A DNA stretch of 32,000 nt from Bacteroides sp. (GTDB lineage: Bacteria > Bacteroidota > Bacteroidia > Bacteroidales > Bacteroidaceae), in the NCBI GenBank assembly GCA_030151885.1, contig JASLCG010000014.1:11209-43208 (forward strand). Reading direction: 5' to 3'. The first letter of the stretch is position 1. The number at the start of each line of letters is the position of its first letter. The notes below the pieces were generated by a model. It was given only the letters and a program-made list of their open reading frames with translations. It did no database searches and had not been told where the DNA came from. The position numbers and the translations under genes were made by a program. Below are positions 7,418 through 31,463 of the stretch, piece after piece.

Positions 7418-7512
7418 AAGATATTTGGTAAACGGGAAAAGATCTATTGCTCTGATTACTCAATATTACGATATTTTGTTAATATAAACAAATAATGCTC
7501 TTTTTTAACAAC

Positions 7513-7520
7513 CAAATGTA
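7513..7520 (-). promoter_or_regulatory. candidate -7 promoter box (TAcaTTTG on the minus strand) for the ECF sigma gene
   Basis: caaatgta on the plus strand is TACATTTG on the minus strand, about 95 nt upstream of the ATG at 7417. Pattern match only. Confidence 0.25.
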
Positions 7521-7601
7521 ATTACTCAAAAAAAAGAATAGAAATGCGTAAGTAAATAACTCTATCTGTTCGTAGTATGGGTAAAGAGAAGAAAAATACC
7601 T

Positions 7602-8618: not shown

Positions 8619-8658
8619 CCAAAAGCACAAAACCTTTTAATACTAAAAATTAATACTT

Positions 8659-12015: not shown

Positions 12016-12027
12016 CTTTAAAGATTC

Positions 12028-13548
12028 ATGATTATGAGAAAACATATATTAGTATTGATGCTAGTGGGTAGCGTACTATGTTCTTGTACGGGAGCTAGCT
12101 TCTTAGACGAAAAAACAAATCCCAATAAACTAACACCAAATGTGTTTTGGAAGTCGGAGGGAGATATATTAAAGGGCTTAGTAAGTGTGTATGCTTCACT
12201 ACAACCTAATATGAATTGGGCGGCACCTTTTGAAAGATATATTGTAGTTGACAATTATAGAACAGACGAGCTAGATTATCGTCCTGACGTAGGTACGTGG
12301 TTAAGATTGGCTACCTATAATAATACCCCCACTAATAGTACAACAAATGCAGAGTGGCTATACCTATATCGTGGAATAAATTATGCCAACCAATGTATAG
12401 ACAATACACCTAGTGTACCTAATCTAAGCGAAGAGGTTAAAAAAGCCTATATAGCCGAGGCTCGTTTCTTAAGGGCATACTACTACTTTAGGTTGTATCA
12501 GAATTTTGGTGAGCGTATCCCTCTATTTTCAAAACAGATTGAGGGTACAGAAGCAGAGTTTTATCCAGATCAGTCTAAGCCAGGAGAAATTGTGGCACTA
12601 ATAGAGAAGGAGCTGATAGATGTACAAAACTACCTTCCTGCCGACCATTCTGGAGCTGGTTATTTGCCTGGTAGAGTAACAAAGTATGCAGCAGCTGCTA
12701 TTTTAGGCAAGTTCTATCTATTTCGTAATGAGTTAGCGAAAGCAGAGAAAGAGTTTGAAAAACTGATTGGTAAGTTCGAACTTATGGAGAATTATGCCGA
12801 TAACTTCTCTGGATTACATAAAAATAATAAAGAATCTGTCTTTGAAATTCAATTCTCAGGAGATAGAACGGGTGGCTTAAGAGAGTATAATAGAATAGCA
12901 CTACACTTAGCATCTTCAAATGCAGAGGGGTATGAAGAGGCTTACCCATCTAAATGGTTATTTGAAACATTTAAAAAAGACTTGACTAAAGATGGAAAGT
13001 TTAGCGATAGAATGTATGCTACTATTCTTTTTGATGATCCTAATACGAAAGCATTCTATATTAAAGAGGGCGAGAAATTTACTGATTACCATAGTACAGA
13101 TGAGATATTCTGGCACAAGTTTGTTACGTGGGATCCTTCTTTAAGCCAATATTGGGACATGAGTGCTTATAATATTCCTATAGTAAGATATGCAGATGTA
13201 TTACTGTGTTATGCAGAGTGTCTAAACGATAGAGGTGCAACTAAGGAGGCTATTAAATATGTTAATATGGTAAGAGCTCGAGTAAATTGCCCTGATTTAG
13301 ACGAAGGTATGGGAAAAGATGAGCTACTTAAACACCTTCAAGAGGTTGAAAGACCTTGTGAGTTGGCATTAGAGGGTACAAGATGGTATGACCTAGTGCG
13401 TTGGGGTATTGTAGGTGAGTCGCTTAAAGCACACGAAAAACCCCATGCAGATAACTTTGTAGCTTCAAAACATACATTACTACCAATTCCTCATTCTGAA
13501 TTCTTATTAAATCCTGACTGGGAACAGAATCCTGGCTTCAGTAAATAA
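12028..13548 (+). CDS. SusD/RagB-family nutrient-binding outer-membrane lipoprotein
   Basis: Lipobox 'VLCSC'. TPR-like helical N-half ('EARFLRAYYYFRLYQNFG') and the typical C-terminal 'ELALEGTRWYDLVRW'. Sits immediately after SusC. Confidence 0.9.
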   Translation: MIMRKHILVLMLVGSVLCSCTGASFLDEKTNPNKLTPNVFWKSEGDILKGLVSVYASLQPNMNWAAPFERYIVVDNYRTDELDYRPDVGTWLRLATYNNTPTNSTTNAEWLYLYRGINYANQCIDNTPSVPNLSEEVKKAYIAEARFLRAYYYFRLYQNFGERIPLFSKQIEGTEAEFYPDQSKPGEIVALIEKELIDVQNYLPADHSGAGYLPGRVTKYAAAAILGKFYLFRNELAKAEKEFEKLIGKFELMENYADNFSGLHKNNKESVFEIQFSGDRTGGLREYNRIALHLASSNAEGYEEAYPSKWLFETFKKDLTKDGKFSDRMYATILFDDPNTKAFYIKEGEKFTDYHSTDEIFWHKFVTWDPSLSQYWDMSAYNIPIVRYADVLLCYAECLNDRGATKEAIKYVNMVRARVNCPDLDEGMGKDELLKHLQEVERPCELALEGTRWYDLVRWGIVGESLKAHEKPHADNFVASKHTLLPIPHSEFLLNPDWEQNPGFSK

Positions 13549-13555
13549 TATTACT

Positions 13556-15559
13556 ATGATAAAAATGAAAAACATATTCCGTAGCACTTTACTAACACTT
13601 TTGCTATGCTCTTGTGGGGGTAAGGAGGCTACGGTCTCTACGCCGTTACAGTCTGTACAGACTGATTTCTCTAATCTACTAAATATTAAAAATGTTCCTG
13701 ACGATCAAAGGGATAGGACCAAGTATGTCTTTACAGACTATGGTGCTTGGGGAGGCTATGCTTTACCTTATCTACAAAGTAGGAGGGTTTCGGGAGCATT
13801 TATAGGGCCCATGTTAATGAGTGGCCAAGGCTGGGTGTCGAGAAGTGTAGCTATTCCAGAGCTTAAACTGAATGATAAGCCTTTTGACTTCTTTTACGAT
13901 GTGAAAGATACAGAATATCTACCTGGTAGATTGGTGCAGAAGTTTGGTAATGTAAATGTTGCTATAACTTCAGAGCTTTGTTACGCTTCTCGTTACGAGG
14001 CAGTAATACGTACTACAATCAAAAACTTGACAACCAAGGAGATGAAAGTGAACTTGGCATGGGGTGGAGATTTATTCTCCGAAGATGCTAGGGTAAATGT
14101 TATGCCCGATCATTTTGCCTGCATAGATCCGAATACAAATGTAAATGTCGATATCTATAATGCAAAGGTTTATGAAAGAGGTTTCAAAGAGGGGAAAATG
14201 CTAGCTAGAGAGAGTGAACAGCTATTAGCACCTAGTGCTATATATGTATCTACACAATCTATCTGGACATATTTTGGTAATGAAGGGGTTACATCTACAA
14301 AAGTAAGTTTAATAGACGATAGTAAGAGCATCTTCAATGCTAATGCTTCAAGATGGAATGGATACTTGGCAAAAGTGTTGGACAGAGAGAGCCCTTTCCT
14401 TCAGGATAATACCTACAGAAGAGTTATAGTGAAAGCTATGAATACTTTAAATAATAACTGGAGAGCTCCTTTAGACGATTTACTATACGATGGTTCTTAT
14501 CCTTCGTATTGTGGATTCTTTGGATTCTGGTCGTGGGATTCGTGGAAGCATGCATCTGCTACTACACTTTACAACCCAGAGTTGGCAAAGAACGAAGTAC
14601 GTTCTCTATTTGCATACCAAGATAAAGAGACTGGAATGATTCCAGACTATGTGAGCCGACGCAAAGAGCGTATCAACTGGAGAGATTCTAAACCTCCACT
14701 ATCTACTTGGGCGGTGCATAACATATACCGTGAGTCGGGCGATAAAGAGTTCGTAAAAGAGATGTTCGATAGGTTACTTCAGTATCATTACTGGTGGTAT
14801 TCGCATAGAGATCATGATGGAAATGGAATTTGCGAATATGGTTCGACAGATGGAACTCTTATTGCTGCTGCTTGGGAGAGTGGTATGGATAATGGTGTAA
14901 GGTTTGACGATGCCATTATGTTGAAGAATAAACCTGACTACTCGTGGTCTATGAATCAAGAGAATATCTGTTTAAATTCTTTTTTGTATGCTGAGAAATT
15001 ATATTTGGCAGAGTTAGCTGAGCTGATTGGTAGATCGGAAGTAGTAGAAAGACTTCAAAAAGATGCTGCTTATATTAAAGAGTACATACAAACGAAAATG
15101 TACGATGCCGAAACAGGCTTCTTCTACGATAGAAAATTAGAAACAGGTGAACTTGTCAAAGTGATGGGCGCAGAGTGCTGGCTACCTCTTTGGGCTGGTG
15201 TAGCAACTCCAGAACAAGCTAGAAATGTGGCAGATAAAATGATAAATCCAAATCACTTCTTCTCTACAGTACCACTGGGTACTTTAGATGTGAGCCACCC
15301 TAAGTTAAGACCTATTAACGGTTATTGGAGAGGTCCTGTTTGGATTGATCAAGTCTATTTCGGAGTTACTGGACTTAAAAAATATGGAATGCACACAGAG
15401 GCTAATCGTATTGTAGAGCAGTATATTCATAATGCTTATGGACTTACAAGCGATGGTCCTATCCATGAAAATTACAATCCACTTACTGGCGAACCGTTGA
15501 ACTGTCCTCACTTTGGATGGTCGTCGGCAACCACTATATTAATGCTATTAAATTTATAA
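13556..15559 (+). CDS. (alpha/alpha)6-barrel glycoside hydrolase lipoprotein, GH63-like (YgjK/MGH1/trehalase clan)
   Basis: Lipobox 'LLLCSCGG'. Blocks 'GFWSWDSWKHA', 'ETGMIPDYV', 'WESGMDNGVRFD', 'GYWRGPVWIDQVYF' and 'ENYNPLTGEPL...FGWSSA' look like the GH63/GH37 clan. The exact family and substrate were not verified. Confidence 0.6.
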   Translation: MIKMKNIFRSTLLTLLLCSCGGKEATVSTPLQSVQTDFSNLLNIKNVPDDQRDRTKYVFTDYGAWGGYALPYLQSRRVSGAFIGPMLMSGQGWVSRSVAIPELKLNDKPFDFFYDVKDTEYLPGRLVQKFGNVNVAITSELCYASRYEAVIRTTIKNLTTKEMKVNLAWGGDLFSEDARVNVMPDHFACIDPNTNVNVDIYNAKVYERGFKEGKMLARESEQLLAPSAIYVSTQSIWTYFGNEGVTSTKVSLIDDSKSIFNANASRWNGYLAKVLDRESPFLQDNTYRRVIVKAMNTLNNNWRAPLDDLLYDGSYPSYCGFFGFWSWDSWKHASATTLYNPELAKNEVRSLFAYQDKETGMIPDYVSRRKERINWRDSKPPLSTWAVHNIYRESGDKEFVKEMFDRLLQYHYWWYSHRDHDGNGICEYGSTDGTLIAAAWESGMDNGVRFDDAIMLKNKPDYSWSMNQENICLNSFLYAEKLYLAELAELIGRSEVVERLQKDAAYIKEYIQTKMYDAETGFFYDRKLETGELVKVMGAECWLPLWAGVATPEQARNVADKMINPNHFFSTVPLGTLDVSHPKLRPINGYWRGPVWIDQVYFGVTGLKKYGMHTEANRIVEQYIHNAYGLTSDGPIHENYNPLTGEPLNCPHFGWSSATTILMLLNL

Positions 15560-15563
15560 ATAG

Positions 15564-18752
<3,189 letters not shown>

Positions 18753-18785
18753 GGAATTAGTTGTTTTAAATTGATGCTTATGTTT

Positions 18786-18838
18786 ATTGGAGCGATTTTC
18801 ACTTTCTATAAGAGGTGGAAGTTGCTCCAATTCTTTTA
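18786..18838 (+). terminator. rho-independent terminator ending the PUL transcript
   Basis: 17-bp stem (18786-18802 pairs with 18815-18831, including 3 G-U pairs), a 12-nt loop, then tcttttata. Confidence 0.7.
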
Positions 18839-19098
18839 TACAAGAAGCGTTGCCTAGTGGTATAAACAGCATATAGGCATAAGAATCTGTAAAGCTTTGT
18901 TAGCTAGTGCCTATTATATGTTATAAAATTATAATATAAGGTATTGGCATACTACATGGCAGAAAACTTAATCTCTTCTGTTTGTACCACTGCGCTATTA
19001 TTGCTAGTTTCGCAACTGTTTCTTTTTAATACGCTTGTACTAGGAAGAAGTAACCTTTTAAAAACTAAAACTAACTATCAAGACTAAAATTACTATTT

Positions 19099-20238
19099 AT
19101 GCAGAAAAGTAACCTTTCATCCGCAGCCTTTGCCGATTCGAAACCGCATTACATTATTCTGAATGGACTGCGTGGTGTTGCAGCTATAACAGTGGTCTGT
19201 TTCCATCTGTTTGAAGCTTTTGCGACTAGCCACTTAGACCAAAGACTTAATCATGGCTATTTAGCTGTAGATTTCTTCTTTATACTATCTGGGTTTGTTA
19301 TAGCATATGCTTATGACGACCGATGGGGAAAAATGAGTATCAAAGACTTTATTAAACGAAGAGTAATACGTCTTCAACCCATGGTTGTGATGGGAGCCAT
19401 AATTGGTGCCGTAATGTTCTATACGCAAGGCTGTTCGGCCTGGGATGTGTCAACAGTTGCTGTATCGACACTGCTTTTGGCTACCATAATGAATGCGTTA
19501 ATGATACCTGCCACTACAGGTGCAGAAATCCGTGGAGTAGGAGAGATGTACCCACTTAATGGTCCAACATGGTCTCTTTTCTTCGAGTATATAGCTTGCT
19601 TTATGTATGCTTTCTTTATCCGTAGATTAAGCAAAGCAGCCTTAACAGGGTTGGTTATCTTATCAGGATTAGGATTAGCTTACTATAGTATTTTTGGTCC
19701 ATTGGGCGATATTTGTGTAGGCTATTCACTAACAGGTTCCGAATTTACAGGTGGATTTTTAAGAGTATTGTTCTCTTTCTCTGCTGGTCTTTTACTATCT
19801 CGAGTATTTAAAAAAGCAGTGAATATTAAAGGAGCTTTCTGGTTGTGTGGATTAGCAATTGTAGTTCTACTATCTGTTCCTCGTATTGGTGGTGCAGAAC
19901 ACTTATGGATGAATGGACTTTACGATACAATTTGCTTTGCATTATTCTTTCCACTAATTGTTTATCTAGGTGCATCGGGTAGGGTATCTGATAAATACAC
20001 ACAAAAGCTTTGTAAGTTTTTAGGAGATATCTCTTATCCTTTATACATCGTTCACTATCCATTTATCTACCTATATATTGCATGGGTTAGTAACAATGGT
20101 TTAACATTCGAACAGTCGTTGCCAGGTGCAGCAGCAGTAGTAGTAGGAAGTATTGTACTAGCATATATCTGTTTAAAATGCTACGATATTCCTGTACGTA
20201 AATTCCTAGCAAAGAAGTTCTTGCATAAGACAAAATAG
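19099..20238 (+). CDS. membrane acyltransferase (acyltransferase family 3, O-acyltransferase)
   Basis: 379 aa and polytopic. The N-terminal family signature 'LNGLRGVAAITVVCFHL' and 'GYLAVDFFFILSGFVI' are present. Confidence 0.8.
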   Translation: MQKSNLSSAAFADSKPHYIILNGLRGVAAITVVCFHLFEAFATSHLDQRLNHGYLAVDFFFILSGFVIAYAYDDRWGKMSIKDFIKRRVIRLQPMVVMGAIIGAVMFYTQGCSAWDVSTVAVSTLLLATIMNALMIPATTGAEIRGVGEMYPLNGPTWSLFFEYIACFMYAFFIRRLSKAALTGLVILSGLGLAYYSIFGPLGDICVGYSLTGSEFTGGFLRVLFSFSAGLLLSRVFKKAVNIKGAFWLCGLAIVVLLSVPRIGGAEHLWMNGLYDTICFALFFPLIVYLGASGRVSDKYTQKLCKFLGDISYPLYIVHYPFIYLYIAWVSNNGLTFEQSLPGAAAVVVGSIVLAYICLKCYDIPVRKFLAKKFLHKTK

Positions 20239-20266
20239 AGTCCTGTAAAATAGGCTTAACCATATA

Positions 20267-20330
20267 AAAGAGGACCTTTTATGACATAAGAAAATATTTC
20301 GGCTTATGTGTAAAAGGACCTCTTTTTTGT
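20267..20330 (+). terminator. strong rho-independent terminator after the acyltransferase gene
   Basis: Arms aaaagaggaccttttatgacataag (20267-20290) and cttatgtgtaaaaggacctctttt (20303-20326) form a stem of more than 20 bp with one small bulge. Followed by a T-run. Confidence 0.8.
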
Positions 20331-20373: not shown

Positions 20374-20381
20374 TAGCTTTG
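20374..20381 (+). promoter_or_regulatory. candidate -7 promoter box (TAgcTTTG) for the helicase-PLD gene
   Basis: tagctttg lies about 100 nt upstream of the ATG at 20483, downstream of the preceding terminator. This implies the gene has its own promoter. Pattern match only. Confidence 0.35.
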
Positions 20382-20406: not shown

Positions 20407-20448
20407 TAGTAACTACACTTGAAATATAGTAACTTTACACTTGAAATA
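20407..20448 (+). repeat. tandem direct repeat (20 nt + 22 nt) in the 5' leader of the helicase-PLD gene
   Basis: tagtaactacacttgaaata (20407-20426) is immediately followed by tagtaactttacacttgaaata (20427-20448). The two are identical except for a 2-nt 'tt' insertion. Confidence 0.85.
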
Positions 20449-20482: not shown

Positions 20483-23400
20483 ATGGTTATAAAGCGAAAT
20501 TCAGCACGTCAATGGCTTAATTACTATGCTACCAGTTTGACGGATGGAGATATGATTGAAGTTGCCGATGATGAAATTAAGCAACGACTTATATTAAACT
20601 CATCAGCAGTACTTCTTGATAAAGTCAGTTTAGAGAGGGCTTATCAGAAATTATATCAACGCTTGCCCCAGATAGAAGGCGGTGAAAGGAAGCCTGGTGA
20701 TGTGTTTGATTTAGAGCTATCTGTTTTTATATCTCCTTTCTATATGGTCGAGGTTAATGCTAATAACATTAAAAAACCAAAACGAGTGTTTCCTTTTTGG
20801 ATTCCAGCTTTACTTTTGGCTACTGGCGAATTAAGACCTCCTACAGATGATAAAATTGCTCCTTGGTTTATTCGTAGTGTGTTAGATCCAATGCCTAGTG
20901 TGGGTAATATTGCAAGTTTGGGAAATCTTACTGATGTGTTAGATGTTTTAACAAAACATGAGTTCTCTACTATAAGCTGGTCTGAGTATTGGGAGAGCAG
21001 TTGTAAGTTTTTCCATAAAATAACGGAAGCCAACTTTGATAATATTCAAGTAGAAGGTGCTACCATTGTGCACGAATATAGCTTGGTAAATAGCGATAAG
21101 AAGGTAGAAGCACGTAGTATTGCTAAACTGTATGCTAGGTTGCAACGAGATAATAAGACTCCTAAATTACTGAATCATATTTTGAGTAATCAGTTTATGA
21201 AACAAGAGAGTCTTCCTAGAAGAGAAATTTCATTCTTGCAGAAAGGGCATTATGGTCAGTTCAATAATAAATTTCCATTAAGTCCGTCTCAAAGAGAATC
21301 ATTACTTACATTTATAAAAGAGGAGCATAGCACCCCAACCAGTGTATTGGCTGTTAATGGTCCTCCTGGAACAGGGAAGACCACGTTGTTGCAAAGTGTA
21401 GTGGCTAACGAAATGGTTTATAGTGCTTTGGCTGGTTCTAAACCAAAAAGAATAGTTGCCTCCTCAACGAACAATAAGGCTATTACCAATATATTAGACT
21501 CCTTTGGAAATACCTCTAGCTTGAAACGATGGTTACCCAAACTCTCTTCTTTGGGTGTATATATGATATCGGGCGACGAACAGAAGCAGTTAGATGCTAT
21601 AAGATCTGGTTATCAGTTGTTAAGGCTGACTAGAGATGGGTTGGAAGGGCATTATTTTGATCATCATGAAAACCCACATCGCTCTTTAGAGCAGTTTGAA
21701 TTATACTACAAAGCGGCATATGCTACAGCCTACGATTCAATAGCAGAGCTTAGTATTAAAAATATTACAGACGAATTGTATGAAGAACTTCTGCACAAAA
21801 GCCAGCTAATAGACAAGGTTATAGGTACCTATCAGAAGATAGCTATTTTTGAAAACGATTCAGAATATAAGCTTTCGGACTTGTCAATCCTTCAAGAAAA
21901 TATTTGTCAGCAAAAAGAGCAGAAAGAGAAGATATTGGCTCGTAAAAAAGAGCTTATAACATTTAAAACTGAAGTGTTTGATGCCTTTTTTGTCAAACAT
22001 AAAGCCCCATTGCTAACTAGGATTATTGGTACTAAAGACAAGGAGTATAACAACAGGGTACAGTTGTTTTTATCTACAACCGAATATGCTTCTTATTTTA
22101 AAACTTGTAACTCAAGAGAAGAGGCAGAGCAGGTATTGTTAGAGATCTTAGAAGAGGTTAATAATGAGCTTAATCTAGTTAATAAGCAGATAGATAGACT
22201 AGACAAGTTAGCAGTGCAATGTGAAGAGCTATTGACACAACAACAAGAGGTAAACGATAATTTACAACTATATTGGAAGGCTTATTTAGCAGGACAAGGA
22301 GAGAAGGCAATGGTGTATAAAGCTATGTTATCTGATGCCGAACTACATATTGAGCGAATACAGATAATACTAGATTTAACTTTGCGTTACGATTGCTTTG
22401 TGTTGGCTGTGCACTATTGGGAAGGACAGTGGTTGCTTCATCAGCAGAAGGGGCCTTATAAAAACACGAAAGGAGTAGTCTCCAGACTAGATGTATTTAA
22501 GCGTATCAGCTACTTAACGCCTCTGTTTGTATCTACATTCCACATGTTGCCAAGTTATTGCAGTGCCTTTACACTTCTAAATAAACAGTGGAAAGTACAA
22601 CCCATTTACGAAGCTTTTGATGTCTTAATTGTGGACGAGGCAGGACAGGTGTCTCCCGAAATAGGGTTGCCATCTATGAGTTTTGCGAAGTATGCATTGA
22701 TTGTTGGTGATGTGCATCAAATAGAACCAGTGTGGAATATTGCATCTGCAAAAGTTGATAAAGCTAATTTGGACGATTATAACTTATTAAAAGAGCATAG
22801 TTACGAAACTTGGAAAGATAGGGGAGTGTTGTGTACATCTGGTAATTTAATGAGCTTAGCACAAAATGCTTCAAAATACAAGGTGTCGTCCGAATTAGGT
22901 GGAACAATGTTAGTAGAGCATCGTCGTTGTGTGGACGAGTTAGTGGCTTTTAGCAACGAGTGTGTTTACAAAGGTCTGCTCAAACCAATGGTTGGTAGCA
23001 AAGGTAACTGTCAATTGTTATGGAAGAATGAAACGTTGACTCTTCCTCCTTTTGGCTATATAAACATCAGAAGTAGGTCGGAGCGTAGGTATGGAAGTAC
23101 CTGTAATGAATATGAGGCACAAGCAATAGCTCAATGGATTAAATATTATACTCCACATATTTTACACCACTATGCCAAAGAGAGTGGTGGAGAGCTGATT
23201 TATAAAGATATAAGTGAGTGTATTGCCGTAATTACTCCTTTTACGGCACAAGCTAAAGTGATAAGAGAAGCTTTTATACAAGAGGGTGTAAGTACACAAA
23301 TAGGAATAGGTACAGTGCATACCTTTCAAGGTGCAGAGGTGCCAATAGTTGTTTTTTCGCCTACTTATGGAGCGAATACCTATGGTAGAAGTTTCTTTTT

Positions 23401-24070
23401 TGATCGTGGTTATAATATGCTTAATGTAGCAATAACGCGTGCTAAAGATCATTTTATTGTTATTGGAAACATGTGTAATTTCAGGATAAATGGAATGAAA
23501 AAACCATCTACAATACTGGCTAAGTATTTAATGTCTTCTGAAAATAATGAACTTCCTAGCTCTTTTCTGTATCAAAATGACACACGTTTTCACTGTCCAA
23601 CTAACAGATTAGATAAGTTAGAACGACATCAAGCTTGTTTAAAATATACCATATCTAAAGCAACAAACCAAGTAGTTATTGTATCGCCATTTATATCAAT
23701 ATATGCCATTGAGGCCGATGGCTTGGTGACATTGATAAAAGAGGCTGTAAGTAGAGGGGTGAGAGTTATAGTTTATACAGATGCTCAATTAGATGTGGTT
23801 AATAGAACCCTAAAAGAGAGTAGCAGTCGTGGCCGATCCGCATTGCTAGATGCAGGTGTGGATCTTAGGATATTGAATGGAATTCATAACAAGGCTATTG
23901 CTATGGATGATATTATGTTAGTAGAGGGTTCTTTTAACTGGTTGTCGGCTATTAGAGATCAAAGCCACCCTTATTTCAGACATGAAGTATCTCAAGTACT
24001 TCAGGGTGTGAATGCTCAAAGAGAAATTCCTAGATTATTAAAAGATCTAGAAGATATAGAACATACCTAA
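20483..24070 (+). CDS. SF1 Upf1/DNA2-like helicase fused to a C-terminal PLD-family (single HKD) nuclease; Mokosh type II (MkoC)-like architecture
   Basis: Helicase motifs: 'LSPSQRESL', Walker A 'GPPGTGKTT' (aa 293-301, nt 21359-21385), Walker B 'LIVDEAGQ' (D718/E719), 'VGDVHQIEPV', 'TVHTFQGAEVPIVVFS' and 'LNVAITRAKDHFIVIGN'. The C-terminus has a perfect HxK(x)4D(x)6GSxN motif, 'HNKAIAMDDIMLVEGSFN' (aa 1135-1152, nt 23885-23938). Confidence 0.85.
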   Translation: MVIKRNSARQWLNYYATSLTDGDMIEVADDEIKQRLILNSSAVLLDKVSLERAYQKLYQRLPQIEGGERKPGDVFDLELSVFISPFYMVEVNANNIKKPKRVFPFWIPALLLATGELRPPTDDKIAPWFIRSVLDPMPSVGNIASLGNLTDVLDVLTKHEFSTISWSEYWESSCKFFHKITEANFDNIQVEGATIVHEYSLVNSDKKVEARSIAKLYARLQRDNKTPKLLNHILSNQFMKQESLPRREISFLQKGHYGQFNNKFPLSPSQRESLLTFIKEEHSTPTSVLAVNGPPGTGKTTLLQSVVANEMVYSALAGSKPKRIVASSTNNKAITNILDSFGNTSSLKRWLPKLSSLGVYMISGDEQKQLDAIRSGYQLLRLTRDGLEGHYFDHHENPHRSLEQFELYYKAAYATAYDSIAELSIKNITDELYEELLHKSQLIDKVIGTYQKIAIFENDSEYKLSDLSILQENICQQKEQKEKILARKKELITFKTEVFDAFFVKHKAPLLTRIIGTKDKEYNNRVQLFLSTTEYASYFKTCNSREEAEQVLLEILEEVNNELNLVNKQIDRLDKLAVQCEELLTQQQEVNDNLQLYWKAYLAGQGEKAMVYKAMLSDAELHIERIQIILDLTLRYDCFVLAVHYWEGQWLLHQQKGPYKNTKGVVSRLDVFKRISYLTPLFVSTFHMLPSYCSAFTLLNKQWKVQPIYEAFDVLIVDEAGQVSPEIGLPSMSFAKYALIVGDVHQIEPVWNIASAKVDKANLDDYNLLKEHSYETWKDRGVLCTSGNLMSLAQNASKYKVSSELGGTMLVEHRRCVDELVAFSNECVYKGLLKPMVGSKGNCQLLWKNETLTLPPFGYINIRSRSERRYGSTCNEYEAQAIAQWIKYYTPHILHHYAKESGGELIYKDISECIAVITPFTAQAKVIREAFIQEGVSTQIGIGTVHTFQGAEVPIVVFSPTYGANTYGRSFFFDRGYNMLNVAITRAKDHFIVIGNMCNFRINGMKKPSTILAKYLMSSENNELPSSFLYQNDTRFHCPTNRLDKLERHQACLKYTISKATNQVVIVSPFISIYAIEADGLVTLIKEAVSRGVRVIVYTDAQLDVVNRTLKESSSRGRSALLDAGVDLRILNGIHNKAIAMDDIMLVEGSFNWLSAIRDQSHPYFRHEVSQVLQGVNAQREIPRLLKDLEDIEHT

Positions 24071-24160
24071 TTAGGCTGTAAATCCTTTCATATAGTAGTA
24101 AATAACACTTAATATGTTGCTTTACTAGGTTACCCCCCCCTTAAAAGGAACACTTAGTAA

Positions 24161-24266
24161 GTCGCCGATAAGCCTTATGTTTATCGGCGACTTACCTCTA
24201 TCTTATCGGCAACATGCTTGAGGTATGTCGGCAATGAACAAATAGCTTCTCGTAGCTAGCTCTGAT
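24161..24266 (+). repeat. copy B of the YRTCGGCRAY / 22-bp-phased repeat
   Basis: Boxes: inverted gtcgccgata 24161, tatcggcgac 24182, tatcggcaac 24204, tgtcggcaat 24226, degenerate tctcgtag 24248. An 11-bp hairpin forms at 24161-24171/24181-24191. Same orientation as copy A. Confidence 0.8.
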
Positions 24267-24310: not shown

Positions 24311-24347
24311 AAAGAAACAACACCAGTACAAATAATGTACTGGTGTT
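24311..24347 (-). terminator. rho-independent terminator of the pilus operon
   Basis: Perfect 12-bp stem aacaccagtaca (24319-24330) / tgtactggtgtt (24336-24347) with a 5-nt loop. Followed on the minus strand by GTTTCTTTATT. Lies 56 nt after the stop of the tip gene. Confidence 0.75.
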
Positions 24348-24402
24348 ACCTAGGTTATTAGAACGAAGTTCTAAATTAAGAAAACAAAATATATTTTTCA
24401 AG

Positions 24403-26436
24403 TTAATTTCTTACACAACGGATCGGGAGAAGGTAATATTTAAGTTTTTCATATTCTTTTAATATATTATTCCCTGTTCCATATTGAGAAAATACGATTG
24501 CACTAGAAGCTGAGTTTTTTATAGTTTCAGTACTCCAGTAAGCTCCTTCATAATATAGAGTTACACTCTTTGACTTAGTTTTTGTATCATTTATAAATCC
24601 TCCAGGAAAAATACGTACAATATCCATATTGTTGTTTTTTTCCCAGTAGGCTGGGTTCGAAATATCTGTAATAGATATCTTTGCCCCAGCTTGTCCAAGA
24701 TATCTAGCTCTAATCTCTAAATCTCTAATTTTAGTATTAGGCCGATTATAGGTACTCCATCTATAGGCAGTTAAGTAATTATTTGTACTACTAGAAATAA
24801 ACTTTAGTGCATAAACTATTGTACTGAATTCTGTGTTTTTCTGTTCTGTATACTCTCCAGTAATACCGCGTACTTTTATAGTATATTTGCTTGTAGGGTA
24901 AGGGGATTGAGAAATAGTTAATGCTTTGGTCTCTAGTACATCTGGTATGTGGTATCCTTGTGGGCAAGGGTCTCCAGTAAGTTCGCCCATGTAGTCTTTA
25001 TTAGTACCAATATACTCTTTAGGAGCATAAGGAATTTGTCGCTTAATTATGGATGTCCAAGTATCCTCAACCTTTTTTACATTTAATTCTAATTGTCCAT
25101 TATAAGTCCAAAAAGCAGAATCATCTATACTTGTTATTTTAAAATCTTCTAACTTATTATAGTCAATAGGTTTATTTCTTCCCCAATTCCAAAGAGCTCC
25201 TACTGGATAACTTGAATCTTTTTTAGAGACAAACTTATTTACATCGACAAGATTTTCTTCGGCAAAATAGTATAAAGCAACATTAGGAAGTATCACACGT
25301 TTATCGGTAGTCTTAACATTGGCTATTGTAGCAGATATGGTATAGTGGTGGTTACGCTTAGTGTCAAAACTTTTTGTGTTGTCCATTCCTAAATAGATGC
25401 GGTACACTGCAGGAAAAGACTCTATATCTCCACTTGCAGTCGGACGAGAGTAATATCCATATATTTGTATATTTGATGCAAACTCTGGTGCAGAAATTCC
25501 CCCTTTTTGATGAGGAAACTTAATTTTATCTACTGTCCCTTTTATATTTTCTGCAATATACCAAGTAATCTCTTTACCAGGAGATAAACTCACCATATCG
25601 TAGTCCACATAATCTGACTTGTTAGCCTTATCGGGCTCAGTTGGTTGGATGTAATACATACCTTTGCTACACTCTTGTAACTGTACGGCTTTAGGTTCGA
25701 ATGTATGCTTGTCAGGTAGTTTAACAGAATAGCTGAAGGTAACTTTTGCAACCATTCGCTCTAATTTAATCTCCTTAATAGCTTCTGTTACTTTACCTGT
25801 ATATACGGCAGCCATAGGTAAGTTACTACCATTGGTAGTAAGCTCCTCTTGCACATTATAGGTTCTAGATTTTAATTGTTTTAATTTCCCTAATGTTTCA
25901 ATTGAAGAGGAACTACTAAATAGAGAAGAGTTATTCGAATTCGCTATAAAGCATATAGTTTGCTCGATATTTGCATCGCTATCTTCTTTTTTATCACTGT
26001 TTAAATTAGGTTTAATAATATAATCATCACCTATTTCTGTTATAAACTCTTTTGATACGAGCTTTGCTTCATTATCTGTGCCATTGTATTGTAATACCCA
26101 AACGTTGTCTATAGTCTCTTCTGCATCTTCACCTACATCTCCAGGAGCCCTGGTTTTAGCCTTTTTTTGTGTAGGTTTAGCATTATAATCTACGTACATA
26201 GATGATTCTTCAGAGTCATTTTCTACACTCGAAACTTTGTGCGCTCTTGTATCTTTATCTAAGTTATACTCTTTTATTGGATCTACAACTAGTTTAAAAG
26301 CTGGCCCATTACCATTTAGCTCTGGCTTCTGAGGTGCTTTTACGTCCACCTCAATCTCGCTGCTACAAGAAATGAGCATCCCCAGACAGGTTACTAGTAA
26401 TAGGACCGTTTTTATTGTTTGATTCACTATTTTCAT
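24403..26436 (-). CDS. type V pilus tip/adhesin-like lipoprotein with C-terminal FISUMP-like (Fibrobacter succinogenes major paralogous) lectin-type domain
   Basis: Lipobox 'MLISCSSE' and last position in the fimbrial operon. The C-terminal third carries FISUMP hallmarks: 'GALWNWG', 'DPCPQGYHIPDVLETKAL', 'GAYWSTE' and the terminal 'LLPIRCVRN'. Confidence 0.65.
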   Translation of the reverse strand: MKIVNQTIKTVLLLVTCLGMLISCSSEIEVDVKAPQKPELNGNGPAFKLVVDPIKEYNLDKDTRAHKVSSVENDSEESSMYVDYNAKPTQKKAKTRAPGDVGEDAEETIDNVWVLQYNGTDNEAKLVSKEFITEIGDDYIIKPNLNSDKKEDSDANIEQTICFIANSNNSSLFSSSSSIETLGKLKQLKSRTYNVQEELTTNGSNLPMAAVYTGKVTEAIKEIKLERMVAKVTFSYSVKLPDKHTFEPKAVQLQECSKGMYYIQPTEPDKANKSDYVDYDMVSLSPGKEITWYIAENIKGTVDKIKFPHQKGGISAPEFASNIQIYGYYSRPTASGDIESFPAVYRIYLGMDNTKSFDTKRNHHYTISATIANVKTTDKRVILPNVALYYFAEENLVDVNKFVSKKDSSYPVGALWNWGRNKPIDYNKLEDFKITSIDDSAFWTYNGQLELNVKKVEDTWTSIIKRQIPYAPKEYIGTNKDYMGELTGDPCPQGYHIPDVLETKALTISQSPYPTSKYTIKVRGITGEYTEQKNTEFSTIVYALKFISSSTNNYLTAYRWSTYNRPNTKIRDLEIRARYLGQAGAKISITDISNPAYWEKNNNMDIVRIFPGGFINDTKTKSKSVTLYYEGAYWSTETIKNSASSAIVFSQYGTGNNILKEYEKLKYYLLPIRCVRN

Positions 26437-26490
26437 ATTCTTATGTTACGTTTTAATTGATCCAGTTAAATCGTTTTAAAAACTTATTAA

Positions 26491-27897
26491 CTATTTACTT
26501 TCACTAATTTCTTTTTGTTCATCGTCTTTTTCCTTCTCTTCGACCTCATTGCCCATGCCATCATGAACAAGCTTAGTTATGTGTTTCCAAGGTTCGACAA
26601 TGTCAAATTTTCCTATACCATAAAAACCATCCCACTTGTAAACGGTCCATGGTATTGCAAAAGATTCTCCTTCACCCAACTTATCAATCCATTCTTTTGG
26701 TATCCATGGCTTTGCTTGCGATGTTGCAACTCCAAGTATTAATGAGGATTGAGCTAATACCCAGTCGTTTACAGAGTAAGCTCCTAAGGTGGCTATTCCT
26801 AACTTAGGAACTTCCCACTCTACAGGAACCCATCCCATAACTTCTAGTTTTGTACCACATCCATTCTGGTTGGCAGCTAGGTCGGGATCTTCGCATCCAG
26901 GGCCACTAATTTTTTTTATACAGAAGCCATAAAAGTGGTTGCGTAGATACTCGTCAATTAAGACTTTTTTCTCTTCATCAGTTGCTTTAGCTAAATCAGA
27001 TTGAATAATTTTGTTTGAATCTATTCTATAAAAAGTCTCTTGAGTATCTCCTCTATAAAAGCCTCCTACAATAATGCAGGTAGGCTTATTAATCCAATTG
27101 GCATCCGTTTCTAATAGCCCTTTTGATTCGCTTAAATAGAAAGTACAGGGTAAAGTTGGATTTTCAATTTCTAAAGGGGGCTCAACTACTGATTCTTCAG
27201 GTTGAGTATGTTGTATAGGTAAGGTAGGTTGTTGAACTCTAAAGTCTTTTTCATGAATAGCCTCTTTATCAGGCACTAATACCACATCTTTTGCACGATA
27301 TACTTTTATAGAGTTTACTTTGAATATATCTTCCGTAATCTCGTCCGAAAGTCTAATCTCTACTTTAGATATTGCACGAAGAAGCTGTACCGAATGATTA
27401 TGTGTCTCATCCTTGGCAGTAGCTTTAACTCCATTTGGTAGTAAAATACTTCCCCACATTGGAATCAAATTGTATGCTAATTTAGCTTCATAATGAGGCA
27501 GTGCGTGTAAAAAGTCTTTTTCATGAGTTCCATAAACATGACTTAGGTCCTCTTTGGTTAGGTTTGTATTTGCCAGAAAATGTATGGCTATTTTATTTGC
27601 AGAGGCATTTAAGTTGAATAAAAGCTTGGTATTCATTGTTACCGTATATTCATAAATGTCTGTTAAGACATCCTCTGTAAATACAAAAATCAAGATGTTA
27701 TCAATTGTATTCTCTGTAAAGTTGGAATTAGCTCCTCGGGTTACCATCTTAAAGTTGAAGTTGATGTTACTATCTTCTGTGTTAGAAGGAGTAGTCAGTG
27801 CTTCTGTACTACAAGATGTAATTCCAAACATTGAAGAGATACAAGTTATTAAAAGAATAAACTCTTTATAAAACTTTTTTATTACCATTCTTCCCAT
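26491..27897 (-). CDS. fimbrial accessory subunit-like lipoprotein (Mfa3/4-position) with W-rich C-terminal repeats and acidic tail
   Basis: Lipobox 'GITSCSTE'. Assigned from its position between the anchor and tip genes and its beta-rich composition; no strong family motif was recognised. The true start may be the second Met at 27888. Confidence 0.5.
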   Translation of the reverse strand: MGRMVIKKFYKEFILLITCISSMFGITSCSTEALTTPSNTEDSNINFNFKMVTRGANSNFTENTIDNILIFVFTEDVLTDIYEYTVTMNTKLLFNLNASANKIAIHFLANTNLTKEDLSHVYGTHEKDFLHALPHYEAKLAYNLIPMWGSILLPNGVKATAKDETHNHSVQLLRAISKVEIRLSDEITEDIFKVNSIKVYRAKDVVLVPDKEAIHEKDFRVQQPTLPIQHTQPEESVVEPPLEIENPTLPCTFYLSESKGLLETDANWINKPTCIIVGGFYRGDTQETFYRIDSNKIIQSDLAKATDEEKKVLIDEYLRNHFYGFCIKKISGPGCEDPDLAANQNGCGTKLEVMGWVPVEWEVPKLGIATLGAYSVNDWVLAQSSLILGVATSQAKPWIPKEWIDKLGEGESFAIPWTVYKWDGFYGIGKFDIVEPWKHITKLVHDGMGNEVEEKEKDDEQKEISESK

Positions 27898-28850
27898 AAT
27901 TCAATGCTATTCCAGTTATTTACACGAACTAAGACCGTAAGGTTTGCATCTTGAGGATCGTTATCTTCTCCGTCAAAGTCTCCTAATTGCTGACGCATAT
28001 CAATTAATATATTCATACGTTCTCCAGCTTGTGGGCAAATAGGATGTCCTATGTGGTCTTTGTTAAATTGTCTAATTAATTTGTCTTGATAGAATAATTG
28101 TACTTCAAAAGGCTCGTTAGGCTCCAGTGGAGCAACTTTTAAAGCCTTAGGCATCACTAATAGATTATTATAAGCAGCCCATTCCGTGTTCGATTTGTAT
28201 TTGTTGATGTGTATGGTTGGTTCGCAGGGTTTGCTCTCAAAGTTGAAAGCTCTGTAAAAGCCACCATGAATCTCAACTCTATAATCTTCGGGGTTATGAT
28301 CTGGGTTAATACCTTTTACACTTACGTGTATGGCCGAAAGCCTTCTTCGAACAATCAGTTCATCAGAATATACTCCCGAATCAGCATCATAAAGTGGTAT
28401 CCTGTTATTACCTTGGAAAATATCGGACTGTATAAATTTGTATTCTTCCCCCTCAGGGAGGAAGAATACTTTATTTACTGCTAATAAAGAGGCAGGATTA
28501 AAATCAATCATTTTTCCAATTGAAGAATTTACCCAAGCTACAACTTTATAGCTTTTATTGGGACAAATGGTCAATTGAATAGGCTCATGCATTGAAATGG
28601 CTCGATGGCTTATATAATGTTTCTCTTCAAATTCATTATAATTGTTAAACAGGTATAAGTAGCCATCTGTTAAATCACTGTCTGTAGAAATATCATTTCC
28701 GCTGTTATCTTCAGCTCTAATATATAAGTTGTATTCTACAGTACAATCATTAAAATCTGTTCCAATGCAGCCTAGGAAACAAGAACAACTAACTAAGATT
28801 AATAGATATAATTTTAATCTGATTCCTCTTTTTTTAGAGCTTGTTACCAT
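27882..28850 (-). CDS. FimB/Mfa2-family fimbrial anchor/length-regulator-like lipoprotein
   Basis: 322 aa with lipobox 'FLGCIG'. Size and position immediately after the stalk fimbrillin gene match Mfa2/FimB-type subunits. Start overlaps the upstream stop (ATGGTAA). Confidence 0.6.
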   Translation of the reverse strand: MVTSSKKRGIRLKLYLLILVSCSCFLGCIGTDFNDCTVEYNLYIRAEDNSGNDISTDSDLTDGYLYLFNNYNEFEEKHYISHRAISMHEPIQLTICPNKSYKVVAWVNSSIGKMIDFNPASLLAVNKVFFLPEGEEYKFIQSDIFQGNNRIPLYDADSGVYSDELIVRRRLSAIHVSVKGINPDHNPEDYRVEIHGGFYRAFNFESKPCEPTIHINKYKSNTEWAAYNNLLVMPKALKVAPLEPNEPFEVQLFYQDKLIRQFNKDHIGHPICPQAGERMNILIDMRQQLGDFDGEDNDPQDANLTVLVRVNNWNSIELWEEW

Positions 28851-29884
28851 TCTACGGTTTGAGATGGAACTACTACCCAGTCTTGTGGGATAACAGTAAC
28901 TTCTAATGTAGCAGGGCTTTGAGGATCTTCAGGTCCTGTACCAAAAGGCTTTTTAATCAATACATTAAGTGTGTATTGGTGGTTTGGCTCGATATATTTA
29001 CCTGTAAGCTCTTCATGACCTTTAATCTCTTTGTCGTTAATTCGGAATGCAAAATGTTGCTCTTCTCCATCATATTGTGCAGAGATAGTCATTAGTGTAC
29101 AGTTATCACCAGCATTATCGTTAGGAGATACGTAGAAGTAAGTTTTATTAGCACCTTTTACGATGTCTCCAGTAAGACGATCGTCTTTAATAGTAGAAAC
29201 TTTACCATCTACACCACCCATAAATTGGAAATGGTTGCCAGTAGCTTTTAATAGATATTCAGGGAAACCGATTAAAGATTTAGATCTTACTTTCATCATA
29301 GAAACACCAGTAAGTTTGAATTTATCTTCATCAAAACCTTTTAGTAGTTTAACGTCCACGTTACCTAGAATAACCTTAGCAACTATACGGCTCACTTTGA
29401 TTTCAACTTTATTGTCATCACCAGCCTTTAATACAACATTTTCTTGGCCAGTCATGGTGAAACCTTTATCGCTCATTTCACCTTTTTTGTTCCACTCTTC
29501 TTCAAGGTCAAGTGTCACATTTTTGAAATCTTCAAATTTTATTACTTTATTAAGTTTTGTAAGAGTTTCGTCCGAAGGGTTAACCACTACATTTACTTGT
29601 TTACCACCAGTAATAAGTCCTGTGATTTTTCCTTCCGATCCTTTAATTTCTTGTCTAGCCTCTAAAACGCCTTTAGAGAATACTAGAACCATCATTTTGT
29701 GGATTGAGTTTTCTTCTTTTTGTGTAACTTCTAAAGAAGCTCTAGTTGCTTTGTTTGCTAAAGAAATTGATAGTGATGCTCTAGTAATCGAGTCTTTCAC
29801 TTCATTAGTTTCATTGCTACAGCTTGTAAAAAGCATAGCTATTCCTAAAAAAGGAATAAAAAGTTTTGAAAAGTTAATTTTCAT
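28844..29884 (-). CDS. FimA/Mfa1-family type V pilus major (stalk) fimbrillin
   Basis: 346 aa with lipobox 'LFTSCSNE'. An Arg-containing propeptide region ('ATRASLEV') lies near residue 48, as in FimA-type prepilins. Two-domain beta-rich sequence. Confidence 0.65.
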   Translation of the reverse strand: MKINFSKLFIPFLGIAMLFTSCSNETNEVKDSITRASLSISLANKATRASLEVTQKEENSIHKMMVLVFSKGVLEARQEIKGSEGKITGLITGGKQVNVVVNPSDETLTKLNKVIKFEDFKNVTLDLEEEWNKKGEMSDKGFTMTGQENVVLKAGDDNKVEIKVSRIVAKVILGNVDVKLLKGFDEDKFKLTGVSMMKVRSKSLIGFPEYLLKATGNHFQFMGGVDGKVSTIKDDRLTGDIVKGANKTYFYVSPNDNAGDNCTLMTISAQYDGEEQHFAFRINDKEIKGHEELTGKYIEPNHQYTLNVLIKKPFGTGPEDPQSPATLEVTVIPQDWVVVPSQTVEW

Positions 29885-29929
29885 ACTTACTTTGTTTTAA
29901 AATTAAAATTATTTTGATTTTTGAATAGG

Positions 29930-31453
29930 CTAGAAAGGAATTCTCACTTGTCCAATTTGATGAATTTCCTTTTTAGCTTTATTTTTAATTCGTAATTGAA
30001 TTATCTCAAGATTTGTTATAGCCTCTTCCGAACCATCTTCTGCAGCTCTACTTAACCAGTATAATGCTGTATCCATATCATTTTGCAAAGCAAATAATAC
30101 TCCTAGGTTATTAAACTTATCTGTAGAATCTGGTGCTTTGGTTAAAATATCTAAGGCTCTATCATATTCTCCACGTGACATTGCAAATGCAGCTGCATTA
30201 TTTATTGCTATAAGGTCGGTAGGGTATGTATCTGCAGCCTTATCAATTGTATTGTAAAACTGGTCACTATCTCTTCCGTATGACTCTGCAAGTGCATACA
30301 TCTCAAAAATGCTTAGTTTTTGTGGATTAGTTTGTATTATATCTTCACTCTCTTCTACGTCGAAAGGTCTAACGGTATAATCTATTCTATAATATACACG
30401 TCTTAAAAGTGGGAAGTACTCCTTATACATTTGTCTATATGGGTTTCCTCCGTGCATAGACATTAGTTTTTGTTCTCTACCATCAAATACCCCATATCTG
30501 TATATGACATCAAGAGCTCCATATTTCCAGTAATATTCGCTTTGATCAATTAGTTTAGCCAGTCTATCCCAGTCTTCTCCCTTCCATTGTATGTCAAAAT
30601 AGTGTCCATTAAGTTCTGGGTATCTTCCTCTTAACCAGTTTGTGAAAGATTTAGCTCTGTCTCTTGATAGCTCGAGGTTATGTTTATAAGTTCCTTCTAT
30701 AGAGCAGTATCCAACAACTTTAATACTTTTAATATCAATGTCTTGATCTCTTACTACGCGGTTAAAGAAGGCACTAGTTTGGCTTAATGTTTGGCCATTG
30801 TTTTTATAGTCAAAAAGTATCTCAGACTTGCCTTGTTTAAAGTTAAGATAAGCTTCTCCATGTTCAAATCTAGTCTTCTCATACTCTTCTATAGGTTGAT
30901 ATTCTGTAACATTAAAATCTAAAGAATCTGCAGGATGTATTGTGAATCTACGTGATCGTGGTCTAGATTTAAATGGCTTATTGCTCTTTGCCATGTTTTC
31001 AACCAAGATAAGTTCTTGTCCTTTGATGTTGCCACAAAAACAATCAGCTTTATAAAGAAGTAGTTTAGCACTCTTCATCCAAGGTCTATTTTTTATAGAT
31101 ATAGTGTAATCTAATGTTTTATCATTTTTTCTAAGCTCATGTACTACTAGTGCATTTGCAAAACTATGGTGTCTTGGAAATCTCTTGTATGTTTGATGTG
31201 CCGATCTACTGTTTATAATTATATTAGGAAGACTTAAAGTGTCTGTAGATGAAGCCAATATAGGATATAGGTAAATTGAATTACCTCTTTTTATATTACA
31301 TTCACTGATGTCTAACGTTAAGTCAATATCAAGATTATTGTTTTGCACGGAAGAAGTAAGAGAATTTAAATATATCGGATTCTTCTTTTGTGCATTAGCT
31401 ATAGTGCCATGGATTACCAATAGTACTAGTAGAGTAATTATATTTCTTTTCAT
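29930..31453 (-). CDS. DUF3868-like envelope protein with OmpA-like peptidoglycan-binding motif and C-terminal TPR repeats
   Basis: Signal peptide. 'VVGYCSIEGTYKHNLELSRDRAKSFTNWL' resembles the OmpA_C motif (G..D..G....N..LS..RA). The C-terminal helical repeats are TPR-like. Follows DUF3575, as is typical in Bacteroidales fimbrial loci. Confidence 0.7.
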   Translation of the reverse strand: MKRNIITLLVLLVIHGTIANAQKKNPIYLNSLTSSVQNNNLDIDLTLDISECNIKRGNSIYLYPILASSTDTLSLPNIIINSRSAHQTYKRFPRHHSFANALVVHELRKNDKTLDYTISIKNRPWMKSAKLLLYKADCFCGNIKGQELILVENMAKSNKPFKSRPRSRRFTIHPADSLDFNVTEYQPIEEYEKTRFEHGEAYLNFKQGKSEILFDYKNNGQTLSQTSAFFNRVVRDQDIDIKSIKVVGYCSIEGTYKHNLELSRDRAKSFTNWLRGRYPELNGHYFDIQWKGEDWDRLAKLIDQSEYYWKYGALDVIYRYGVFDGREQKLMSMHGGNPYRQMYKEYFPLLRRVYYRIDYTVRPFDVEESEDIIQTNPQKLSIFEMYALAESYGRDSDQFYNTIDKAADTYPTDLIAINNAAAFAMSRGEYDRALDILTKAPDSTDKFNNLGVLFALQNDMDTALYWLSRAAEDGSEEAITNLEIIQLRIKNKAKKEIHQIGQVRIPF

Positions 31454-31463
31454 TATAAAAAAC

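Follow-up and report, generated by a model that had tools for sequence, protein, structure and literature searches.

A predicted stand-alone Mokosh type II nuclease-helicase gene, mkoC, in an uncultured Bacteroidales lineage

The DNA analysed here, referred to below as the window, is a stretch of 32,000 nucleotides from Bacteroides sp. (contig JASLCG010000014.1, assembly GCA_030151885.1), and the gene in question, mkoC, lies at 20483..24070 on its plus strand. It is an open reading frame (ORF) of 3588 nt that starts with ATG and encodes 1195 amino acids, as had been described in a first-pass annotation made from the letters alone, and the PADLOC model of MkoC matches the product from end to end. 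As judged by sequence comparison, the gene almost certainly encodes a genuine and complete Mokosh type II protein (MkoC). In type II Mokosh, one gene encodes both an N-terminal helicase and a C-terminal phospholipase D (PLD) domain (Millman et al. 2022, 10.1101/2022.05.11.491447).

MkoC has a four-part architecture, consisting of an MkoC-specific N-terminal domain, an Upf1-like superfamily 1B (SF1B) helicase core, a helical stalk of ~320 residues, and one C-terminal HKD (PLD) domain. The N-terminal domain comprises residues 1-262 (20483..21268) and the first part of RecA1, with the Walker A lysine K299, residues 266-358 (21278..21556). A helical coiled-coil insertion, the stalk, lies between helicase motifs I and II (residues ~360-680, 21560..22522) and is followed by the second part of RecA1 together with RecA2 (residues 681-1000, 22523..23482). 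The single-HKD nuclease domain covers residues ~1046-1175 (23618..24007); all of these parts are encoded on the plus strand. The Pfam scan gave AAA_11 in two stretches (the best at 266-358), AAA_12 at 807-997, and PLDc_2 at 1055-1153 (33.7 bits against a cutoff of 27), so that the three families named in the first-pass annotation all exceeded the gathering score. There was no Pfam match in residues 1-260 or 360-700, and no kinase domain was detected by Pfam in MkoC.

The helicase and nuclease motifs listed by the first-pass annotation were all located where it had placed them. Walker A (GPPGTGKTT) occupies residues 293-301, which places the lysine at K299, Walker B (DEAGQ) residues 718-722, motif III (GDVHQIEPV) residues 742-750, and motif V (TFQGAE) residues 947-952; ITRAKDHFIVIGN corresponds to residues 984-996, where motif VI is given as ITRAKDHF. 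The HKD motif, HNKAIAMDDIMLVEGSFN (residues 1135-1152, with H1135), conforms to the pattern HxK(x)4D(x)6GSxN and falls within the PLDc_2 domain, and HxKxxxxD occurs only once in the whole protein.

The assignment to Mokosh type II is based mainly on the PADLOC MkoC model (PDLC03924), which scored 964.8 bits (E 1.9e-290) over residues 7-1190 of the protein and positions 4-1133 of the 1136-position profile, bearing out the type II-like identity that had been proposed from the motifs. When fragments were scanned alone, the N-terminal 262 residues gave 101 bits with MkoC (profile 4-244) and the insertion 111 bits (profile 351-654), with no other family matched in either case, and the PLD fragment gave 125 bits. 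The N-terminal part measures 264 aa (family median 256), and 419 aa separate Walker A from Walker B (median 409). Since the domain lengths and the profile coverage are typical, we regard the protein as a canonical type II Mokosh and not as a divergent subtype. An NCBIfam scan found no model for the MkoC family, and all matches there were far under the cutoffs.

Conservation was examined in an alignment of 70 homologues with 30-56% identity. The invariant residues of the helicase are G293-T300 (including K299), D718, E719, Q746, Q949, G950, and R986, and those of the PLD domain are H1135, K1137, D1142, G1149, S1150, and N1152. In the N-terminal domain P85, P104, R131, L134, and H256 are invariant. 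All catalytic residues of MkoC are intact.

The two-gene type I Mokosh, the MkoA of which bears a Ser/Thr kinase domain (10.1101/2022.05.11.491447), shares its helicase and PLD families with the present protein. The PADLOC MkoA models scored 116 and 78 bits on the helicase part only (the 116-bit match spans residues 194-1001), and MkoB scored 48 bits on the full protein, where it covered only the shared PLD part, and 56 bits on the PLD fragment alone. Unlike type I, however, mkoC is a single ORF without a kinase domain and without an MkoB neighbour, and type I was rejected on these grounds.

The AlphaFold2 model of MkoC (pLDDT, the predicted local distance difference test, 90.5; pTM, the predicted template modelling score, 0.86) shows an alpha/beta N-terminal domain, two RecA-like domains, an insertion with long helices (425-460, 464-505, 545-603, and 622-654), and a compact C-terminal alpha/beta PLD domain. 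A Foldseek search of the PDB returned senataxin, Upf1, IGHMBP2, Aquarius, DNA2, Sen1, and ZNFX1 (E 5e-18 to 1e-11), the best group being senataxin, Upf1, and IGHMBP2 (E 5e-18 to 1e-15); Upf1-like helicases were thus the top matches, and a phmmer sequence search agreed in pointing to Upf1-like SF1B helicases. MkoC displays the features of these enzymes, namely motifs I, II, III, V, and VI, the AAA_11/AAA_12 pair, and the Upf1-type fold of two RecA domains, with template modelling scores normalised to the target of 0.45-0.59 but a sequence identity of just 12-15%. Upf1 also bears accessory-domain insertions in RecA1 between motifs I and II, and the MkoC insertion is placed likewise; it differs in being a helical bundle of ~320 residues, and MkoC further differs in its extra N-terminal domain and its fused nuclease. 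The N-terminal domain modelled alone reached a pLDDT of 85.9, and neither the PDB nor BFVD contained a significant structural match to it. By sequence, the PLD fragment recovered a single PLD-family structure from the PDB, the mitochondrial cardiolipin hydrolase/Zucchini entry 4ggj, and this match was marginal (E 0.43).

The mkoC transcription unit is bounded by hairpins on both sides. On the plus strand upstream of the gene, at ~20262..20330, there is an intrinsic-terminator-like hairpin followed by U6 (dG -25.1 kcal/mol, z -5.7; 0 of 200 shuffles were as stable), built on an inverted repeat (20266-20281 / 20311-20326) that is 94% complementary. It agrees with the upstream terminator of the first-pass annotation, and the generic terminator scan was blind to it owing to an internal mismatch. 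This terminator-like element ends the preceding acyltransferase gene and separates it from mkoC. A second plus-strand hairpin with a perfect 17-bp stem is located 87 nt past the mkoC stop codon (24157..24195; dG -27.5 kcal/mol, z -6.8) and is likely to be the mkoC terminator, although its T tail is weak. A third, on the minus strand at 24315..24351 (dG -20.5 kcal/mol, z -4.4), is the terminator-like hairpin of the convergent operon downstream.

The 244-nt intergenic region upstream of mkoC contains a weak candidate for a Bacteroidota -7 box, TAGCTTTG, at 20374..20381 on the plus strand, 102 nt before the ATG. The claim that the gene has its own TAnnTTTG box was therefore right as to the existence of the box, but the window contains 49 occurrences of the motif where chance alone would give 41.6. 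Because it is not enriched, the box carries no statistical weight and was rejected as promoter evidence, so that position alone favours TAGCTTTG; the sigma-70 promoter scan is inapplicable to Bacteroidota. Between the candidate box and the ATG, at 20414..20448 on the plus strand, TACACTTGAAATA is present in two exact copies 22 nt apart, which may represent an operator or a duplicated promoter element. The TACACTTGAAATA pair is identical in strain L083 and absent upstream of the 56% identical homologue (L001).

Upstream of mkoC (plus strand), the window holds genes for an ECF sigma/anti-sigma pair, SusC/SusD, a GH63-like enzyme, a GH2 beta-galactosidase, and, as the immediate neighbour, an acyltransferase_3 protein (19099-20238, plus strand). 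The region downstream (24403-32000, minus strand) is a fimbrial operon of the Mfa/FimA type with DUF4906, Mfa2, DUF3868, and DUF3575 proteins, in keeping with the convergent pilus operon of the first-pass annotation. The acyltransferase gene belongs to a polysaccharide utilisation locus (PUL), and neither it nor the fimbrial genes had a match to defence systems, which agrees with the claim that mkoC has no functional tie to either side. The neighbour scans and the strand layout thus justify the terms 'orphan', 'convergent', and 'unrelated to both neighbours'. With hairpins on both flanks, unrelated neighbours, and no partner conserved across the neighbourhoods of its homologues, mkoC stands alone.

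The homologue search scored 8000 candidates and retained 1224 proteins at E<=1e-10. The nearest homologue is 56% identical to MkoC, the next at ~45% are from Dysgonomonas, Marinifilum, Ancylomarina, and Olivibacter, and distant members occur in Paenibacillus, Cohnella, Spirochaetes, and Hymenobacter; the taxonomic spread over Bacteroidota, Paenibacillaceae, Spirochaetes, and Proteobacteria is patchy. Four close homologues were found in four different contexts. The 56% identical protein (P0002) is encoded after a chondroitin-lyase PUL and adjoins AbiH, that of Dysgonomonas (P0004) lies within a conjugative transposon, that of Ancylomarina (P0015) adjoins type I restriction-modification (R-M) genes and a second AAA_11/12 helicase, and that of Olivibacter (P0018) is situated between conjugative-transposon Tra genes and insertion sequence (IS) elements. 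Since all four contexts differ and are rich in defence or mobile-element genes, the pattern is that of a mobile defence gene and not of a housekeeping helicase, the strictly conserved synteny of which the first-pass annotation had named as a possible refutation. The relatives of MkoC thus show horizontal mobility and a link to defence genes. By tblastn, relatives were present on 66 plasmids across Proteobacteria and Bacteroidota, 40 of them predicted to be conjugative or mobilizable, and the carriers include Agrobacterium, Acetobacter, Vibrio, Escherichia, and Nitratidesulfovibrio megaplasmids. In a contig of Dysgonomonas sp. 25 (L085; QVMN01000009.1, 1-23576), a 44-45% identical MkoC was seen as conjugative-transposon cargo between a PRTRC/ThiF-E2-Ub-like module and relaxase/coupling-protein genes.

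A scan with the flanking GH2 gene gave a best identity of 61%, and none of the 80 loci carried MkoC, the acyltransferase, or fimbrial genes; a metagenome scan with the acyltransferase gave 80 mainly gut-associated relatives of 55-75% identity, none of them syntenic and none with MkoC. Altogether, 0 of the 160 loci recovered with flanking-gene relatives carry mkoC.

In E. coli, yjhR has been described as a fused Mokosh (10.1101/2022.12.12.520048). In K-12 and AR_0055 we found only C-terminal yjhR pseudogene fragments (L088 5016-6032 and L089 4911-6017, respectively); the fragment of 338 aa aligns to MkoC residues 857-1190 with 32% identity (E 2e-53). The fragments adjoin IS elements and the TopAI-YjhQ toxin-antitoxin pair, and the fragment sequence is present in 1730 of 5426 complete E. 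coli genomes.

To the conservation of the locus within the species, the following results apply. The species is thinly sampled: a single NCBI contig carries the exact MkoC protein, and Logan assemblies supply two close alleles; exact look-ups of MkoC and of the 677-aa fimbrial protein gave no matches. The 3588-nt ORF is uninterrupted in all three alleles, which come from different samples, and the two other contigs of the species keep the gene order GH2-acyltransferase-mkoC(-fimbriae). Between the window and the Logan contig of strain L083, identity is 99.55% in mkoC and 99.1-99.7% in the flanking genes and spacer upstream of it. Of the codon changes in mkoC, 10 were nonsynonymous and 5 synonymous, whereas nine flanking genes together had 16 nonsynonymous and 51 synonymous ones (Fisher p 0.004). 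In mkoC, the differences from L083 cluster in a hot spot at codons 567-596 (22181..22270, plus strand) within the stalk helix 545-603. This hot spot accounts for 9 of the 16 nucleotide and 7 of the 10 amino-acid changes and is the least conserved block across the MkoC family. The third allele, P0121, has just the first three of the hot-spot changes. With three alleles sampled, the pattern could reflect either a recombination patch or diversifying selection.

An exhaustive search of 1.84 billion representatives with the N-terminal domain yielded 155 cluster representatives at E<=0.001, of which 150 were listed. The domain sits at the N-terminus of nearly all the listed proteins, and it occurs almost only in MkoC-like helicases. 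Besides the full-length proteins of ~1150 aa, there was a second population of about 910-1050 aa, with the proteins examined more closely measuring about 970-1000 aa. All nine short proteins tested (P0134, P0138, P0142, P0158, P0161, P0166, P0190, P0211, and P0252) consist of the N-terminal domain and an Upf1-like helicase that ends right after AAA_12, with no PLD domain, and at the two short-form loci inspected (L176 6001-8982 and L177 6001-9006) no PLD gene adjoins the short-form gene. One of these two loci lies amid housekeeping genes and the other next to helix-turn-helix and AbiEii fragments. Members of the short population may be relatives of Mokosh II that have no nuclease or that work with a different partner.

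In E. coli, protection is conferred by three Mokosh systems and is lost when the ATP-binding site or the PLD active site is mutated (10.1101/2022.05.11.491447). The corresponding helicase and PLD residues, both reported to be needed for Mokosh defence, are present and invariant in the protein studied here. Together with the end-to-end profile match and the contexts of the homologues, this makes it quite probable that mkoC is a stand-alone, single-polypeptide nuclease-helicase directed against phages and mobile elements; a role in the defence of this particular host is also probable, at slightly lower confidence.

Several observations weigh against this interpretation. The copy in the window lies outside any defence island: a PADLOC scan of 10 other window proteins, including both immediate neighbours, gave only weak metallo-beta-lactamase-fold matches, the 32-kb window contains no tRNA, integrase, or transposase, no direct repeats or insertion scars were found flanking mkoC, and its G+C content equals that of the flanks, without anomaly. 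Exact look-ups gave only two further contigs of the same species, both with mkoC, so that presence/absence variation was not seen among the three sampled strains. Sequence and Foldseek searches found no MkoC structure in the PDB, protection against phage is known from the E. coli homologues and would extend to the Bacteroidota protein by analogy, and the proposals on activation by dimerisation, on the substrate, and on what the N-terminal domain does are inferences.

The strongest alternative is that MkoC is cargo of mobile elements which serves mainly in competition between elements (the exclusion of plasmids or conjugative elements), and that the present copy was stranded after decay of its carrier. 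The 44-45% identical homologues in or next to conjugative-transposon genes (relaxase, TraG, TraJ/TraM, PRTRC) and the relatives on 66 plasmids, 40 of these predicted to be conjugative or mobilizable, would fit this explanation, as would the near absence of phage carriage, which amounted to 2 fragmentary phage records and 1 true relative in IMG/VR viral contigs, where the scan was saturated by matches to the Walker A pattern. However, the window is devoid of mobile-element genes, att-like repeats, and tRNA, the composition of the gene is that of its flanks, and an anti-phage phenotype has been demonstrated for the E. coli type II Mokosh. Although the two roles are compatible, we therefore consider it unlikely that competition between elements is the main function. 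A phage-borne origin of the gene was rejected on the basis of the same 2 phage fragments and 1 IMG/VR relative.

It is very unlikely that mkoC is an inactive relic, that is, an intact-looking ORF that is unexpressed or non-functional in its host. Its solitary position without defence neighbours, a promoter that is still a candidate, the relaxed-looking ratio of 10:5 nonsynonymous to synonymous changes, and the decay of the family into pseudogenes seen with yjhR of E. coli K-12 are compatible with such a fate, but the reading frame is unbroken in three alleles, every catalytic residue has been kept, and the substitutions are concentrated in one stalk helix and not spread over the protein.

A housekeeping function in DNA repair or RNA surveillance, similar to that of DNA2 or Upf1, instead of an immune function, is hardly probable either. 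It is true that Upf1, senataxin, IGHMBP2, and DNA2 are the nearest structural relatives of the helicase core, that the gene has an ordinary chromosomal setting with composition and strain divergence like those of its flanks, and that it is present in all three sampled strains. On the other hand, the nearest relative is only 56% identical and is found at a different locus, mkoC is missing from all 160 loci with relatives of the flanking genes, the taxonomy is patchy and the contexts are those of defence and mobile elements, the MkoC profile matches from end to end, and the nonsynonymous:synonymous ratio is raised in comparison with the flanks. The remaining proposal, suggested in the first-pass annotation, of a divergent and undescribed subtype, in which both the N-terminal domain and the insertion would be novel, is scarcely credible, since the two regions left blank by Pfam, the first without a structural match and both in a protein only 56% identical to its closest relative, each match the existing MkoC profile separately, have lengths near the family medians, and, in the case of the N-terminal domain, keep invariant residues across 70 homologues, as expected of canonical MkoC features.

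Returning to the interpretation of MkoC as a defence nuclease-helicase, one HKD motif makes up half of a PLD active site, and the nucleases Nuc, Zucchini, and BfiI pair two HKD motifs. As a single HKD provides only half a site, the MkoC monomer would patrol the cell as a nuclease-incompetent enzyme. The helicase would load on single-stranded phage nucleic acid (ssDNA, RNA, or RNA/DNA replication intermediates) and move along it with consumption of ATP, the 5'->3' direction and the ATP-dependent translocation on single-stranded nucleic acid being inferred from family membership. Two PLD domains might then pair, either because two molecules meet on the substrate or because a conformational signal is passed via the N-terminal domain and the stalk, and the composite HKD site could cut nucleic acid in a metal-free reaction via a phospho-histidine intermediate, thereby aborting phage replication. 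We put forward the dimerisation step tentatively, by analogy, and with less than even confidence. MkoC shares the HxK(x)4D(x)6GSxN motif with the single-HKD nucleases Nuc, Zucchini, and BfiI; in the E. coli protein, EcMokosh II, which is monomeric in solution by mass photometry (~138 kDa; 10.1101/2025.07.10.664194), dimerisation would have to take place on the substrate. In the panel of the same study EcMokosh II protected only against an ssDNA phage, written 'SEC 17' (10.1101/2025.07.10.664194).

A more specific proposal is that two modules set the specificity of MkoC, that the HKD monomer is a nuclease of the substrate-induced-dimerisation type, and that its recognition surface is engaged in an arms race; as a whole, this is rather improbable. 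As parts of it, the N-terminal domain could be a new sensor fold, and stalk residues 567-596 may form a diversifying surface, either for contact with a phage trigger or for escape from an inhibitor made by the phage. The Mokosh II family is experimentally validated, and the triggering of a monomeric helicase-nuclease with a single HKD is a matter for the family as a whole and not for this locus in particular. The high-confidence model, the orphan fold of the N-terminal domain, and the hot spot in the stalk provide concrete handles on this triggering.

Compared with the type II Mokosh of E. coli (YjhR-type), MkoC has the same order of a COG1112/Upf1-like helicase followed by a C-terminal PLD domain in one polypeptide, the profile match runs from end to end, N-terminal domain and stalk included, and the catalytic residues are intact. 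It differs in coming from an uncultured Bacteroidales lineage, with ~30% identity to enterobacterial and other proteobacterial relatives, and in being solitary, whereas Mokosh II of E. coli co-localises with a type IV R-M system (10.1101/2022.08.21.504612). As Mokosh II genes are detected routinely by PADLOC and DefenseFinder, the identification is unsurprising and not in itself a discovery; what it contributes is a type II gene, assigned with confidence, in a gut-type lineage of uncultured Bacteroidales. It also shows that a Mokosh II gene can be a solitary part of the core chromosome, outside any defence island, which matters for surveys that rely on island context.

Outside Mokosh, the architecture has been likened to that of MOV10L1 and PLD6 (10.1101/2022.12.12.520048), and both this parallel and the single-polypeptide nature of type II (10.1101/2022.05.11.491447) had been cited correctly in the first-pass annotation. 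MOV10L1 and PLD6/Zucchini of the animal piRNA pathway likewise combine an Upf1-like RNA helicase with a single-HKD PLD nuclease; they are, however, separate eukaryotic proteins and their sequence similarity to MkoC is marginal, so that an evolutionary link is hypothetical. The coupling of an SF1/SF2 helicase to a nuclease effector has been described as a general 'nuclease-NTPase' logic of defence (10.1101/2025.07.10.664194). DNA2, Nhi-like proteins, Hachiman, and Gabija follow this plan, and DNA2 matches RecA2 of MkoC, but they use other nuclease folds (PD-(D/E)xK, Cap4, Toprim) in another domain order. The PADLOC models of these other nuclease-helicase systems gave no match to MkoC beyond the generic helicase part.

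Some further features of the window were noted. The PUL is complete and extends over 6875-20238, with control by trans-envelope signalling. It comprises the ECF sigma gene (6875-7417, minus strand), a FecR-type anti-sigma gene (7602-8618), and a SusC gene with an N-terminal STN/FecR_C extension (8659-12015), after which come SusD, a GH63/MGH1-like hydrolase, the GH2 beta-galactosidase, and acyltransferase_3. A metallo-beta-lactamase-fold protein is encoded at 1670-2473 on the minus strand; it scored 27 bits with the anti-Pycsar protein Apyc1, against a cutoff of 50, and 30 bits with RTasMBL, one of the MBL-type domains of defence proteins, and this sub-threshold similarity is probably a generic resemblance in fold. 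In the 332-nt spacer between mkoC and the fimbrial genes there is a C8 homopolymer tract (24133-24140), which is of equal length in L083, slipped-strand variation not being seen in the two samples. The 677-aa DUF4906 fimbrial (tip-like) protein, encoded at 24403-26436 on the minus strand, shows 9 nonsynonymous and 4 synonymous changes between the strains, an excess of nonsynonymous changes that sets it apart from the other fimbrial genes.

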